A stretch of DNA of 39,577 nt from Escherichia phage vB_EcoP_IMEP24: sequence record MZ648215.1. One strand, written 5' to 3'. Below the pieces are notes generated by a model. That model searched no databases. It was not told the origin of the DNA and saw only the letters and a list, made by a program, of their open reading frames with translations. The position numbers were made by a program, and so were the translations under genes. This document shows, piece after piece, positions 1 to 39,577 of the stretch. Within the stretch, counting starts at the first letter, position 1, and each line of letters begins with the position of its first letter.

Positions 1-184
1 TCTCACACTTCAAGAACCTCAAGTCTCCCCCATAGGCCCTCTTTCAGTCCAGACCAAGGGTGGCCCACCTCCAGTCTATCATAGGGTTGGACCGGCTGTC
101 AATATCTCAAGTCAACGATTGGTCATGACTATCGGTGGTGGTGGTGACGATAGGTTGGGACTATTGGTCTGTCTCTGAGTCTTT
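1..184. repeat. Left direct terminal repeat (184 bp), identical to 39394..39577
   Basis: First 184 nt of the window recur exactly at the last 184 nt; T7-like genomes carry direct terminal repeats of this size class. Confidence 0.9.
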
Positions 185-199
185 ATCTGTATAACCATA

Positions 200-279
200 A
201 GTCCAACAACCTACAGTCCAACAACCTACAGTCCAACAACCTACAGTCCAACAACCTACAGTCCAACAACCTACAGTCA
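200..279. repeat. Tandem array, 5 perfect copies of 15-bp unit AGTCCAACAACCTAC, just inside left terminal repeat
   Basis: Read directly: agtccaacaacctac x5 then partial copy; CCTACAGT motif recurs at 302-322 and near right end. Confidence 0.9.
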
Positions 280-577
280 CAGACCATCGGTAAAGCCATT
301 ACCTACAGTCAGAGACCTACAGTTAATAGACACAAAGATATAGACTTAAGGTCAAAGACATGTTAGTCAAAGACTATATCATCTTAGTCACTATGGGGCC
401 GACGATAGCTTAATCAATATTATTTCAAATTAACTATTGACTACAGGTCTCGATTATGGCTTAATAGCTTCCGTCAACACGACACGGCAACAACCGGATA
501 GTGAAGACGCCGGGTCATCCCGGTCAAGTAGACAGCCTGATAAGTCATACGAAAAACAGGCAGATGACAGAAAGTAG

Positions 578-607
578 TTGACAAGCAGTAACGACTTAAA
601 GTAGTAT
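578..607 (+). promoter_or_regulatory. Host sigma70-type early promoter (A1-like)
   Basis: TTGACA 578-583, 18-nt spacer, TAGTAT 602-607; lies in early leader where T7 has A1-A3. Confidence 0.5.
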
Positions 608-725
608 GTACCACGTAGCAAGATGGCGTAGGGATAGGAACCGAGAAACCTGCCCGAGACCAGCCAAGGATAAGGCACTAGCTGTGAGTCGAATTCGGTC
701 ACTCACCGCATAAAAGAATAACAGG

Positions 726-754
726 TTGACAGCCTCCTTTAAAAGCTGTAAGAT
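726..754 (+). promoter_or_regulatory. Host sigma70-type early promoter (A2/A3-like)
   Basis: TTGACA 726-731, 17-nt spacer, TAAGAT 749-754; near-consensus -35 and good -10. Confidence 0.6.
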
Positions 755-932
755 GTACCACACTGAAACGACAGTGAGTCCCAACACTGAAACGGGATAG
801 CACGGCGACGACAGCCAACGCGAATGCTCTTTAACAATCTGGATAAACTCTTAATGTGCGCCGATAGCGACTAACTACAGGGTCTTTGAGTCTACATCTG
901 AAGGCCCTGACTGATAGTCACTAACTTAACGG

Positions 933-1187
933 ATGGACACTATGAAACACTTAAGCACAATCACTAATCACAATGAAATATTCGTGAACACTAAAGGTTA
1001 TGCGTGGATTCAGCTTAAAGAGATGACAGGAGCGCGTCACCGTGTGGTAGTGCGCAAGGTCTCAAGCAAGCCGTTCAGTAACTACAGTGTAGATACTGTG
1101 CGTATAGACAACGAGACCTACCTGATAGACTCGCAGATAACCGTGAGTCCTACAGCGAGCGCCTCAGCTCCTTATTTCGCTAACTGA
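933..1187 (+). CDS. Hypothetical early protein (84 aa)
   Basis: ORF in early region upstream of Ocr-like gene; no recognised similarity; weak SD so start uncertain. Confidence 0.45.
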   Translation: MDTMKHLSTITNHNEIFVNTKGYAWIQLKEMTGARHRVVVRKVSSKPFSNYSVDTVRIDNETYLIDSQITVSPTASASAPYFAN

Positions 1188-1274
1188 GAGTGATTAACTA
1201 CAGGTCGTTAGACTCATAGCGGCCTGACTGATAGTCACTAACACACACACGATTAACTTTGAGAGGATATAACT

Positions 1275-1835
1275 ATGGAACGTAACGCTAACGCATACTA
1301 TGAGCTGCTGGCTGCAACCGTTAAAGCATTTAACGAGCGTATTCAGTACGACGAAATAGCTGAAGGCGATGACTACAGCGATGCGCTACATGAGGTCGTA
1401 GACGGTATGGTTCCGCACTATTACCACGAGATTTTCACGGTGATGGCTGCTGATGGTATAGACCACGAGTTTGAGGACTCTGGGCTGATGCCTGATACCA
1501 AAGACGTAACGCGTATACTGCAAGCTCGCATCTATGAGGCGCTTTATAACGACGTGTCTGATAGCTCGGATGTGGTATGGTTTGAGGCTGAAGAGAGCGA
1601 CGAAGAGGATGAATATTGGGTAGTTGACGCTAAAACAGGACTAATCATTGCGCAAGCTGTACCACTTAAAGACGCTATTGCGGTAAGTCGCAGTCCCTCT
1701 AAGGTAATAACAGGGGACACATACCACCTTGCAGGAAAGGACTTCAAGTCCAAAGACGAGGCGATACGCTATGCGGTTGAGCTTGCTGGCGGTCTTACTG
1801 TGACCAAGATGACAACCATCGCGGTGGAAGTGTAG
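1275..1835 (+). CDS. ocr: Ocr-like anti-restriction DNA mimic (T7 gene 0.3 homolog) with ~70-aa C-terminal extension
   Basis: N-terminal ~115 aa match T7 Ocr ([43 protein letters not shown], acidic stretch [11 protein letters not shown]); RBS gagagga upstream; 186 aa vs 117 aa in T7. Confidence 0.85.
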
Positions 1836-1908
1836 GAGTGATAGACGAGAGGTCATCTAACTGATAGGTGGCCTCAAAGATTACCACTTAAATTGATAGG
1901 AGTTAACT

Positions 1909-1998
1909 ATGAACGTCGGTTACTGGGTGTGCTTATCTCCGGTCATCTTTCTGATAGCTTGGGGCCTTCTGGACGCAATCAAGCGAGGGTCATTCTAA
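1909..1998 (+). CDS. Small hydrophobic peptide (29 aa), early gene
   Basis: ATG 6 nt after AGGAG (1898-1902); MNVGYWVCLSPVIFLIAWGLLDAIKRGSF; stop overlaps next ATG (TAATG). Confidence 0.4.
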   Translation: MNVGYWVCLSPVIFLIAWGLLDAIKRGSF

Positions 1999-2195
1999 TG
2001 AGCTGGATACTTCTGGTTATCTTAGGTTATGGACTTATCACCTACGTGCTGGTGAGAGACATCAACAAAGCGCGTAAAGTCTACAAATTCAACTATGTAC
2101 GTCTGGGTCGCTGGACTGTAAGACAACCTAATGGACGATTCACACGAAACCTCGCGAACGTCTGGGATATAGCAACTCTTGGGAGCAAACTGTAA
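1998..2195 (+). CDS. Small membrane protein (65 aa), early gene
   Basis: ATG coupled to upstream stop; hydrophobic segment WILLVILGYGLITYVLV; preferred over the TTG start at 1893 in the ORF track, which lacks an RBS. Confidence 0.45.
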   Translation: MSWILLVILGYGLITYVLVRDINKARKVYKFNYVRLGRWTVRQPNGRFTRNLANVWDIATLGSKL

Positions 2196-2521
2196 TGAAC
2201 AAGTCATACGGGATTAATCTGGTACACTCTATGGACGCAGAAATGAACATGTTAAGCCTACTGGCTACCGGGTATCGTCACGGGACGTCAAGTCACACCG
2301 CACGTCAACAACAGGAGCGCGACCGTGTACTTCAGGCACGACTCCGGGCCGAGGGCCATAAGTCTGAGCTGATGTGTCTGGCGTATGGTGGGCGACCAAT
2401 CACCGACGATGGTAAACTTCTGGTCTCAGGCTGGAAGGCGATAGACCAACGGTCAACCATCAAGCACACGACTCATGGTGACTTCAGTCATCTTCACGCT
2501 AACCCTCTGATATGCAAGTAA
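2195..2521 (+). CDS. Hypothetical early protein (108 aa)
   Basis: ORF with stop-start overlap (TAATGA) in the slot where T7 has genes 0.5-0.7; no kinase motifs. Confidence 0.5.
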   Translation: MNKSYGINLVHSMDAEMNMLSLLATGYRHGTSSHTARQQQERDRVLQARLRAEGHKSELMCLAYGGRPITDDGKLLVSGWKAIDQRSTIKHTTHGDFSHLHANPLICK

Positions 2522-2526
2522 TTCTG

Positions 2527-2549
2527 ACTTAACTATCACTATAGGACTC
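2527..2549 (+). promoter_or_regulatory. Phage RNAP promoter (class II type) upstream of RNAP gene
   Basis: cttaactatcactatagga, +1 G at 2544; matches the 12-member consensus in this genome. Confidence 0.7.
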
Positions 2550-2618
2550 AAGGTCTAAGACTCCAAGTGAAAGACCAAAGAGACTTTAAGTGAAAGACTA
2601 ATAACAAGGACTTTAAGT

Positions 2619-5300
2619 ATGAGCGTCATCTCTATTGACAAACACGACTTCTCTGATGTGTCGAACGCCATTGAGCCGTTTAACCTGCTGGCTGACCACT
2701 ATGGGCAAGACCTTGCAGTCAAGCAGCTTCAGCTTGAGCATGAGGCATACACTGAAGGTGAGCGACGTTTCATTAAGAACCTTGAGCGCCAGACCGAGCG
2801 CGGGGAACTGGCAGACAATCAGGTCGCTAAACCTCTGATGCAAACGCTGGTTCCGACCATCGCTAAGGCTTTCCGTGAGTGGCATGAAGGCCCGGAAGGT
2901 AAGTCATCGACCTCGCGTCCAAGCGTAGCGTTTACCATGCTGAGCACTGACGAGAAGGCTGTAAAAGACCGCTCTCTGCTAATCTCTGCGGAGTCTGCTG
3001 CGGTTATCATACTGAAGGTCATCCTCTCCAAGCTGGTCAAGCCTGAAGGGATACCGATAACTCCTATGGCATCCGCGATAGGTCGCACACTGGAAGATGA
3101 AATCCGCTTTGGTCGCATACGTGAGCAGGAGCAGGAGCACTTCAAGAAGACCATAGCGGAGAACCTGAAGAAACGCGCTGGCGCAAGCTACAAGAAAGCC
3201 TACATGCAGGCAGTCGAGGCGTCTATGCTTGAGCAGGGGCAACTGGCTGACGCTTGGGGGACTTGGAGTCCTACCGAGGCGGTACACGTTGGCATCAAGA
3301 TGCTTGAGATTGTCATCCAGTCCACACAACTGGTCGAGCTTAAGCGTTATGGTGCTGGCAATGCGGCGGCTGACGTTGAGATGGTCCACCTGTCAGACTT
3401 CTGGGTCAAGAAGATGGCACAACGTGGATTCAGCCTTGCGGGTATCGCACCAGTCTATCAACCTTGCGTCGTTCCACCTAAGCCGTGGACGGGTGTCGTA
3501 GGCGGTGGGTACTGGGCCAAAGGTCGCAGACCGTTACCATTGATTCGCTTAGGGTCTAAGTCTGCGGTAGCACGTTACGAAGACGTGTACATGCCTGAAG
3601 TCTATGACGCTGTGAACATCATTCAGAATACACCTTGGAAAGTTAACAAGAAGGTTCTGGACGTGGTGAACATGGTCGAGAAGCTGAACAACACGCCTAT
3701 TGATGACATCCCTCAAATGGAACCACTGAAGCCTGAGGACTATGCGGGTGAGACTGAAGAAGAACTCAAGGCATGGAAGAAAGCTGCTGCTGGTATCTAT
3801 CGCCGCGAGAAGGCCCGACAGTCACGCAGATTGTCGCTGAGTTTTATCGTCAGCCAAGCGAACAAGTTCTCGCAGTTTAAGGCTATCTGGTTCCCGTACA
3901 ACATGGATTGGCGCGGTCGCGTCTACGCTGTACCGATGTTCAACCCTCAGGGTAACGACATGCAGAAAGGTCTCCTGACTCTGGCAGTCGGAAAGCCTAT
4001 TGGCGCTGATGGTTTCAAATGGCTGAAGGTCCACGGTGCAAACTGTGCGGGTGTCGATAAAGTCACCTTCGAGGAGCGCATCAAGTGGGTGGAAGACAAC
4101 CACGACAACATCATGTCTACCGCTAAGGCCCCGATGGACAGCATTGAGTGGTGGGGTAAGTTAGACTCTCCTTTCTGCTTCCTAGCGTTCTGCTTCGAGT
4201 ATGCTGGCGTAATGCATCACGGCCTGTCTTACTCCTGCTCGTTGCCGATAGCGTTCGATGGGTCCTGCTCTGGGATTCAGCACTTCAGCGCGATGCTTCG
4301 TGACCACATCGGTGGACATGCAGTAAACCTGACGCCTTCCGGTAAGGTTCAAGACATCTACCGCATCGTGTCTGACCGCATTGAGGAGGAGCTTAAAGTC
4401 CTGCTGGTTAACGGTACGGACAACGAGATGGTCACTCACGAGGATAAGAAAACTGGTGAGATTACCGAACGTCTCAAGCTGGGGACACGAGAGCTGGCCC
4501 GGCAGTGGCTGACTTACGGTATGTCACGCAAGGTAACTAAGCGTTCGGTCATGACTCTGGCCTACGGGTCGAAAGAGTACGGATTCGCAGACCAAGTTTA
4601 CGAGGACATCGTGATGCCAGCGATTGACTCAGGGTCCGGCGCTATGTTCACTGAACCAAGCCAAGCGTCTCGCTTCATGGCTAAGATGATTTGGGAAGCT
4701 GTTAGTGTGACCGTAGTTGCTGCGGTTGACGCGATGAAGTGGCTTCAAGGTGCTGCCAAGCTGCTGGCTGCTGAAGTGAAGGACAAGAAGACTGGCGAAA
4801 TCCTGAAGCCATGTCTTCCGGTACACTGGGTCACACCTGATGGTTTCCCGGTCTGGCAGGAATACCGCAAGAAAGATACCACTCGTCTGAACCTGATGTT
4901 CTTAGGGTCATTCAACCTTCAGCCTACGGTCAACAAAGGCACGAAGAAAGAGCTGGACAAGCACAAGCAGGAGTCAGGCATTAGCCCGAACTTCGTCCAC
5001 TCACAAGATGGTAGCCACCTGCGCAAGACTGTAGTCCACACGCACCGCAAGTATGGCGTGATGTCGTTCGCAGTGATCCACGATAGCTTCGGGACCATCC
5101 CGGCTGACGCTGAGTATCTGTTCCGTGGCGTCCGTGAGACAATGGTTGAGACCTACCGCGACAACGATGTGCTGCTTGACTTCTACGAGCAGTTCGAATA
5201 CCAGCTTCACGAGAGTCAGCGCGATAAGCTGCCTGAGCTTCCGAAGAAAGGTAAACTGAATATCGAAGACATCCTGTCTTCAGACTTTGCATTCGCTTAA
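2619..5300 (+). CDS. Single-subunit DNA-directed RNA polymerase (T7 gene 1 homolog)
   Basis: 893 aa; near-collinear with T7 RNAP incl. KAIWFPYNMDWRGRVYAV, HGANCAGVDK, LPxAFDGSCSGIQHFSAMLRD, VHSQDGSHLRK, IHDSFGT, C-terminal FAFA. Confidence 0.98.
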   Translation: MSVISIDKHDFSDVSNAIEPFNLLADHYGQDLAVKQLQLEHEAYTEGERRFIKNLERQTERGELADNQVAKPLMQTLVPTIAKAFREWHEGPEGKSSTSRPSVAFTMLSTDEKAVKDRSLLISAESAAVIILKVILSKLVKPEGIPITPMASAIGRTLEDEIRFGRIREQEQEHFKKTIAENLKKRAGASYKKAYMQAVEASMLEQGQLADAWGTWSPTEAVHVGIKMLEIVIQSTQLVELKRYGAGNAAADVEMVHLSDFWVKKMAQRGFSLAGIAPVYQPCVVPPKPWTGVVGGGYWAKGRRPLPLIRLGSKSAVARYEDVYMPEVYDAVNIIQNTPWKVNKKVLDVVNMVEKLNNTPIDDIPQMEPLKPEDYAGETEEELKAWKKAAAGIYRREKARQSRRLSLSFIVSQANKFSQFKAIWFPYNMDWRGRVYAVPMFNPQGNDMQKGLLTLAVGKPIGADGFKWLKVHGANCAGVDKVTFEERIKWVEDNHDNIMSTAKAPMDSIEWWGKLDSPFCFLAFCFEYAGVMHHGLSYSCSLPIAFDGSCSGIQHFSAMLRDHIGGHAVNLTPSGKVQDIYRIVSDRIEEELKVLLVNGTDNEMVTHEDKKTGEITERLKLGTRELARQWLTYGMSRKVTKRSVMTLAYGSKEYGFADQVYEDIVMPAIDSGSGAMFTEPSQASRFMAKMIWEAVSVTVVAAVDAMKWLQGAAKLLAAEVKDKKTGEILKPCLPVHWVTPDGFPVWQEYRKKDTTRLNLMFLGSFNLQPTVNKGTKKELDKHKQESGISPNFVHSQDGSHLRKTVVHTHRKYGVMSFAVIHDSFGTIPADAEYLFRGVRETMVETYRDNDVLLDFYEQFEYQLHESQRDKLPELPKKGKLNIEDILSSDFAFA

Positions 5301-39393: not shown

Positions 39394-39577
39394 TCTCACA
39401 CTTCAAGAACCTCAAGTCTCCCCCATAGGCCCTCTTTCAGTCCAGACCAAGGGTGGCCCACCTCCAGTCTATCATAGGGTTGGACCGGCTGTCAATATCT
39501 CAAGTCAACGATTGGTCATGACTATCGGTGGTGGTGGTGACGATAGGTTGGGACTATTGGTCTGTCTCTGAGTCTTT
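39394..39577. repeat. Right direct terminal repeat (184 bp)
   Basis: Identical to 1..184. Confidence 0.9.

Follow-up and report, generated by a model that had tools for sequence, protein, structure and literature searches.

The left end of the Escherichia phage vB_EcoP_IMEP24 genome (sequence record MZ648215.1) carries the usual Kayfunavirus set of known but functionally uncharacterized early gene families together with a genome-specific ocr fusion. The window, by which we mean the whole analyzed stretch of 39,577 bp, is a complete K1F-like genome with an exact direct terminal repeat of 184 bp at positions 1-184 and 39394-39577, and its nearest sequence records all belong to Kayfunavirus (K1F-like, Autographiviridae/Studiervirinae). 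Positions 933-2521 are its left-end class I (early) block. Here an open reading frame (ORF) of 81 or 84 amino acids (aa), ocr, and ORFs of 29, 65 and 108 aa follow one another in this order, bounded by host promoters on one side and by the single-subunit RNA polymerase (RNAP) gene, gene 1, on the other (Table 1). All five ORFs had been placed at these positions by an initial annotation made from the letters alone, which regarded the small proteins as uncharacterized and as candidates for new host-takeover or anti-defense factors. By profile match the genes are not new and fall into the known families phrog_10124, phrog_2385 and phrog_7066. The term uncharacterized holds in the sense that no function was found; the 65-aa ORF, a homolog of T3 gene 0.6, is no orphan. 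Lack of conservation in relatives had been named as the observation that would speak against these genes; we found the 65-, 108-, 84- and 29-aa products in 625, 223, 118 and 93 phage records, respectively. Overall, we put the probability that 933-2521 is a K1F-like class I region of this identity, architecture and general role at about 0.7.

Table 1. Features of the early region of the window and of related phage records.
Record	Feature	Position	Strand	Details
Window	Sigma-70 promoter-like site TTGACA-18-TAGTAT	578-607	+	10/12 matches; T7-group A promoter counterpart
Window	Sigma-70 promoter-like site TTGACA-17-TAAGAT	726-754	+	T7-group A promoter counterpart
Window	RNase III-type hairpin 5' of gp0.2	865-923	+	-22.9 kcal/mol, z = -3.5, internal loop
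Window	gp0.2 homolog	942-1187	+	81 aa; 84 aa (933-1187) from upstream ATG
Window	RNase III-type hairpin 5' of ocr	1189-1240	+	R0.3 counterpart; -23.3 kcal/mol, z = -4.9
Window	ocr ORF, chimera	1275-1835	+	186 aa
Window	Ocr portion of the 186-aa ORF	1275-1681	+	DNA-mimic domain and start of K1F-type C-terminal extension
Window	Deletion junction within the 186-aa ORF	1672-1681	+	Short direct repeat GCTATTGC; blastn pieces overlap here
Window	Fused tail, about 50 C-terminal codons of a helix-turn-helix early gene	1682-1835	+	Counterparts: pO2 123-aa protein, ASO2B_005, SH3 gp0004
Window	RNase III-type hairpin 5' of three-gene module	1836-1890	+	-20 kcal/mol, z = -3.75
Window	29-aa peptide gene, first of three-gene module	1909-1998	+	Predicted single-pass membrane peptide
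Window	65-aa protein gene	1998-2195	+	T3 gene 0.6 family (K1F gp0.37, alias '0.6')
Window	gp0.38 homolog	2195-2521	+	108 aa
Window	First phage-RNAP promoter	2529-2546	+	Just 3' of the 108-aa ORF; downstream end of the host-RNAP-only region
Window	Gene 1 (single-subunit RNAP)	2619-5300
Window	Phage-RNAP promoter copies	2529, 6063, 7749, 8711, 13383, 17434, 20255, 21242, 25791, 33070, 38797	+
Salmonella phage CHRF_30116.1	Early region	1786-3228		SAMase in place of ocr; 243-aa kinase 5' of 65-aa/gp0.38 genes
Salmonella phage ST17	Kinase remnant	1486-1683		65-aa N-terminal remnant only, at the kinase spot
Gamaleyavirus EC1-UPM	gp0.2 homolog	2526-2759		About 50% identity; early small-gene cluster
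Phapecoctavirus phiWec190	gp0.2 homolog	3007-3252		About 77% identity; early small-gene cluster

The 29-, 65- and 108-aa genes form a closely packed module and, judging from their substitution patterns, are under purifying selection. Translational coupling of the first two had been proposed before and is consistent with a TAATG stop/start overlap at their junction; a second TAATG overlap joins the 65- and 108-aa genes. The latter overlap is conserved in 8/8 relatives examined, and the 108-aa gene lies directly 5' of gene 1 in eight relatives. The TAATG junction between the 29- and 65-aa genes occurs only in the window and Peacock, other relatives showing a different overlap or a gap of a few bases. 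Compared pairwise with eight relatives, the 65-aa gene of the window has a ratio of nonsynonymous to synonymous substitution rates (dN/dS) of 0.06-0.37, and the 108-aa gene one of 0-0.31. The 29-aa gene gives values of 0.10-0.15 wherever dS is unsaturated and measurable; elsewhere dS is saturated with dN of only about 0.3, and the 29-codon frame is kept at full length in its 93 phage records at identities down to 55%.

The first two products of the module are predicted membrane proteins. Both had been described as hydrophobic, which is correct for the 29-aa peptide (Kyte-Doolittle 19-residue mean of 1.99) and, for the 65-aa protein, applies only to the N-terminal 19 residues (mean of 2.17), the remainder being strongly basic with an isoelectric point (pI) of 11. 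Positive charges follow the hydrophobic segments of both proteins, an arrangement that predicts an N-out, C-in topology: the two proteins probably insert into the inner membrane such that the N terminus faces outward and the C terminus lies in the cytoplasm.

The 65-aa ORF is, by homology, the counterpart of T3 and phiYeO3-12 gene 0.6, and the label '0.6' that it carries in K1F and EcoDS1 is justified. Its profile match to phrog_2385 has an E-value of 5.3e-30, and BLASTP relates it to T3 gp0.6 (1.4e-8), phiYeO3-12 gp0.6A (4e-8) and a KP32 homolog (2.4e-14), all four proteins belonging to phrog_2385. Like the window protein, T3/phiYeO3-12 family members have 65-67 aa, an N-terminal transmembrane helix and an invariant R[WF]TVRxxNGRF motif, present here as RWTVRQPNGRF in the basic, predicted cytoplasmic domain. 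Their early location, between 0.3 and gene 1, is shared as well. What follows 0.6 in T3-type and KP32-type phages, however, is 0.65, a 0.6B extension or a kinase, in contrast to the overlapping gp0.38 gene found in the window. Records of the 65-aa protein come from phages of Klebsiella, Escherichia, Salmonella, Erwinia, Dickeya, Pectobacterium and other hosts, which places this protein, never characterized, among the most widely conserved early gene products of the Studiervirinae.

The 108-aa product, gp0.38, is a basic, His-rich protein of the phrog_7066 family (E = 3.2e-46). Its conserved core comprises residues 27-108 and is near-invariant across Kayfunavirus. An exhaustive HMMER profile search of 1.84 billion representatives returned only 15 clusters at 50% identity. 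The credible ones consist entirely of short proteins sharing ERD.VL..R..AEG, DGKLL and GDF[ST]HL, and all named relatives are phage proteins; two long matches, a PKD-repeat protein and a zinc-finger protein, were judged spurious. A relationship to T3 gp0.65 was considered and rejected (hhalign probability of 0.8%). In the Citrobacter phage CR8 (Caroctavirus), the conserved segment EDGKLLLAGLKAGIQKS is duplicated in tandem within gp0.38 (2975-3331), suggesting that this hairpin-like segment may be a functional unit.

Comparison with known phages places the window closest to the K1F arrangement. K1F and other Kayfunavirus members have the same families, gene order and hairpins and likewise no kinase, and the ASO2B annotation equates window-type ORFs with K1F gp0.2, gp0.37 and gp0.38. 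Identity between the window and K1F is 94% for gp0.2, 86% for the 65-aa protein and 90% for the gp0.38 core. In contrast to K1F-type early regions, the window has neither gp0.35 nor the helix-turn-helix gene as a gene of its own, and K1F encodes an unrelated 55-aa two-helix membrane protein at the place of the 29-aa peptide. CR8 carries a comparable module of 34-aa, 64-aa ('0.71') and 118-aa ('0.38') genes right before gene 1, its gp0.38 being 45% identical to that of the window. Unlike the window, CR8 encodes a T7-like 0.4 and a 242-aa kinase 5' of this module and has no gp0.2.

The first early gene, gp0.2, is an accessory gene whose distribution points to horizontal exchange. In the annotation of relatives it starts at the ATG at 942, behind a GGA-rich Shine-Dalgarno-like stretch, and its product matches phrog_10124 over the full profile (positions 1-77/77, E = 1.9e-40). 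The protein is basic and all-beta with a conserved C-terminal tail ...SASAPYFAN. An AlphaFold2 model with a mean predicted local distance difference test (pLDDT) score of 71.7 shows five strands, and a fold search with this model gave no match. Besides CR8, the gene is missing from EcoDS1, yong1, EPr2 and ST31. Its carriers include Klebsiella T7-like phages of about 40 kb, N4-like Gamaleyavirus, which has the gene in its early region, and 150-kb Phapecoctavirus, where it belongs to a cluster of small genes. This occurrence in both an N4-like podovirus and a 150-kb phage indicates exchange between unrelated virulent phages of enterobacteria. Substitutions within Kayfunavirus are too few for a useful dN/dS; we count gp0.2 as a real gene because its protein sequence is conserved in four phage groups, with identities of 35-78% to proteins from other phage families. 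A patchy, cross-family spread is the usual mark of accessory counter-defense genes (Silas et al. preprint) and fits a role in host range or counter-defense, so that gp0.2 is probably an accessory host-factor or counter-defense binder. The possibility that it is related to T7 gp0.4 was rejected (hhalign probability of 1% for the gp0.2 profile against gp0.4).

The 186-aa ocr ORF is, as its alignments indicate, an in-frame fusion of about 135 residues of Ocr with the last approximately 50 residues of a downstream helix-turn-helix gene. This feature was absent from the initial annotation and is the sole unexpected addition made by this genome. Residues 8-96 match the Ocr domain (Pfam PF08684, E = 1.6e-31, 109.2 bits against a cutoff of 25), the Ocr portion matches PDB entry 1s7z with E = 1.8e-27, and positions 850-1681 are collinear with the ocr region of pO2, ASO2B and K1F. 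From 1669-1672 onward, the window instead follows the last third of the separate downstream gene; by tblastn, the fused tail is 84-95% identical to the 3' ends of stand-alone genes from 17 relatives. Stand-alone Ocr is acidic and about 110-170 aa long; the window protein exceeds this range, its residues from about 136 onward come from another gene, and the fused tail has a pI of 8.35. No record of the exact fusion protein was found, and no phage record spans the junction without interruption.

Both parental genes (ASO2B ocr and ASO2B_005) contain the 8-nt direct repeat GCTATTGC, and loss of about 530 bp between its copies joined ocr to the 3' part of the helix-turn-helix gene. Lost with this deletion were the end of ocr, one RNase III-like hairpin and, from the downstream gene, the N-terminal half, whose helix-turn-helix matches are weak and all below the Pfam curated cutoffs. 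Comparison across genomes shows that ocr and the three-gene unit are separated by a variable accessory slot prone to deletion. CR8 and CHRF_30116.1 have a short kinase there, and other relatives have gp0.35, helix-turn-helix or other small genes. In protein P0277, from another Kayfunavirus-like contig, the gp0.35 N-terminus continues into the second, C-terminal half of the 65-aa protein. With this second natural fusion, early-region deletions appear to be recurrent in the group, and the ocr fusion illustrates how easily the early region undergoes deletion.

Signals surrounding the early genes are consistent with transcription by the host RNAP followed by RNase III processing. Both sigma-70 promoter-like sites are of consensus grade, and three host promoters are annotated at the corresponding places in EcoDS1. 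The three hairpins, whose z-scores compare folding energy with that of shuffled sequence, align with annotated RNase III sites of T3 (R0.3, R0.5 and R1) and phiYeO3-12 (R0.3 and R0.45). By analogy with T7 and T3, cutting of the early transcript at these hairpins would yield a gp0.2 mRNA, an ocr mRNA and a tricistronic mRNA for the 29-, 65- and 108-aa proteins. The downstream boundary of the region is marked by the first copy of the phage promoter motif TTAACTATCACTATAGGA, which occurs in 11 plus-strand copies against 0.02 expected and in 0 copies upstream of 2529. A sequence identical to the promoter at 2529 stands where EcoDS1 annotates a phage promoter.

A gp0.7-type kinase is absent from the window, as the initial annotation had stated, and this is, across the genomes compared, the common state of Kayfunavirus and not a peculiarity of this genome. 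Searches of the whole window by tblastn with the T7, CR8, KP32, T3 and phiYeO3-12 kinases gave a best E-value of 0.16, in late genes, and Pfam identified the ocr domain only and no kinase in the early ORFs. Similarly, T7 gp0.4, gp0.5 and gp0.6A had no tblastn match in the window (E > 3 for gp0.4), in keeping with the earlier statement that T7-type 0.4, 0.5 and 0.6 are lacking. The same kinase-less architecture is found in K1F, EcoDS1, Peacock, pO2, ASO2B, yong1, EPr2 and ST31. T7 genes 0.4 (FtsZ inhibitor), 0.5, 0.6 (MreB inhibitor) and 0.7 (kinase/shut-off) occupy the same slot and belong to the same expression class, and T7 gp0.5 is likewise a small membrane protein, with zero detectable sequence relationship between these T7 genes and the window ORFs. 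Early proteins are reported to be depleted of Ser, Thr and Tyr in kinase-encoding Autographiviridae, where, according to a published idea, a promiscuous kinase selects against these residues (PMC13645617). Their combined share in small early proteins is 18.1% in the window (25.9% in gp0.2 alone), compared with 12.7% in T7, 13.2% in KP32 and 15.1% in CR8, a comparison of a few hundred residues in which the higher value of the kinase-less window fits the reported depletion.

The 65-aa protein most likely targets a conserved, envelope-associated host machine. That it is kept in several genera of the Studiervirinae and in phages of many enterobacterial hosts speaks for a housekeeping target that is itself conserved. 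K1F infection is reported to give rise to multi-ring filaments and FtsI mislocalization even though K1F has no gp0.4 (PMC9372555). A membrane-anchored early product is a plausible candidate for the factor behind this effect. Our best single guess is that the 65-aa protein, together with co-translated gp0.38, acts on the division or elongation apparatus, which would explain this gp0.4-independent division block; we regard this specific target as tentative and, on balance, unlikely. Doubtful, too, is the fuller proposal that a membrane-anchored early complex made up of the 29-aa peptide, the 65-aa protein and gp0.38 blocks a late division step or envelope growth and represents the K1F filamentation factor. 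If true, the complex would be a new class of phage division inhibitor common to T3-, KP32- and K1F-like phages. K1F-like phages are in therapeutic use and are known to block host division, and the genes described here are on the short list for the blocking protein. Once identified, the targets could give a new envelope or division inhibitor or, for gp0.2, a new counter-defense protein. The assignment directs experiments to the right genes and will hold no surprise for specialists in T7-group phages.

Several observations weigh against these functional assignments. The profile searches and structure predictions that had been proposed as a check were run on the small ORFs, and neither they nor fold searches assigned a function. 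PDB sequence and profile searches with all three families returned nothing below E = 0.4, and the gp0.38 structure model, with a pLDDT of 48.9, is of too low quality to be used in fold comparison. That the early region is expressed and cleaved by RNase III is carried over from the precedent of T7-group phages. The division or elongation target is a guess derived from topology, conservation and one K1F paper, and the composition comparison draws on a small sample. A literature search on gp0.2, gp0.37, gp0.38 and gp0.65 found nothing relevant.

Alternatively, all four small proteins might inhibit specific anti-phage defense systems, a reading that we consider possible but improbable. The four genes enter the cell first and flank ocr, and gp0.2 is patchy within the genus and common to unrelated phage families. 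Occurrence of the 65-aa protein across so many records and hosts fits a conserved target better, however, and the near-invariant gp0.38 core agrees more with a housekeeping target than with variable defense systems. In addition, the motifs searched from these proteins are absent from the 200-gene accessory screen of Silas et al. Of the earlier proposal of host-takeover or anti-defense candidates, what stands is that the genes lie in an early region transcribed by the host RNAP; positive evidence for anti-defense was not found, and gp0.2 alone has an accessory-type distribution.

Inhibition of MreB by the 65-aa protein, as suggested by the shared name and position with T7 gp0.6, is unlikely. 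T7 gp0.6 has been reported to bind MreB, the 65-aa gene is annotated '0.6' in K1F and EcoDS1 and is a true T3 gp0.6 homolog, and T3 gp0.6 and T7 gp0.6A share two collinear motifs, TVxxxxG.F and K.NK[IV]G..Y...TH (pairwise E = 0.02). On the other hand, T7 gp0.6A belongs to phrog 8393 instead of 2385 and reaches an hhalign probability of only 0.3%, so that the MreB function is not transferable to the 65-aa protein, and it has no transmembrane helix. Moreover, K1F infection leads to filaments and not to the lemon-shaped cells expected from MreB inhibition (PMC9372555). Homology of the 65-aa protein to T7 gp0.5 is not supported either (hhalign probability of 0.4%, different PHROGs).

That the small ORFs, chiefly the three-gene module, functionally replace the missing 0.7 kinase/shut-off protein is very unlikely, and the idea of these ORFs as standing in the kinase's stead is not supported. 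The position of gp0.38 directly 5' of gene 1, where T7 has 0.7, would suit a replacement, and with 242-243 aa the kinases of CR8 and the Kayfunavirus CHRF_30116.1 are short beside T7 gp0.7 (359 aa). These kinases are nevertheless encoded directly 5' of the 65-aa/gp0.38 gene pair, and in T3, phiYeO3-12 and KP32 the 65-aa gene lies just upstream of a full-length kinase. This coexistence indicates that the module and the kinase are independent of each other. We also rejected gp0.38 as a detached 0.7 shut-off domain, its profile giving hhalign probabilities of 0.6% against T7 gp0.7 and 0.04% against the KP32 kinase. Finally, that some of the ORFs, notably the 29- or 84-aa ORF, are chance reading frames is hardly credible: the ORFs are very short, the 29-aa ORF is unannotated in many relatives and gp0.2 offers no meaningful dN/dS, but the length and substitution pattern of the 29-codon frame and the cross-family conservation of gp0.2 described above speak against it.

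Outside the early genes, the 11 phage-RNAP promoter copies share the core T[TA]A[AG]CTATCACT[ATG]TAGG[AG]. T7 and T3 have a phiOL-type promoter at the left end, whereas none was detected near the left end of the window at up to 3 mismatches (<=3), and positions 1-3000 gave zero Rfam matches. Just inside the left terminal repeat, at about 199-290, lies a tandem array of 5-6 copies of the 15-nt unit GTCCAACAACCTACA.

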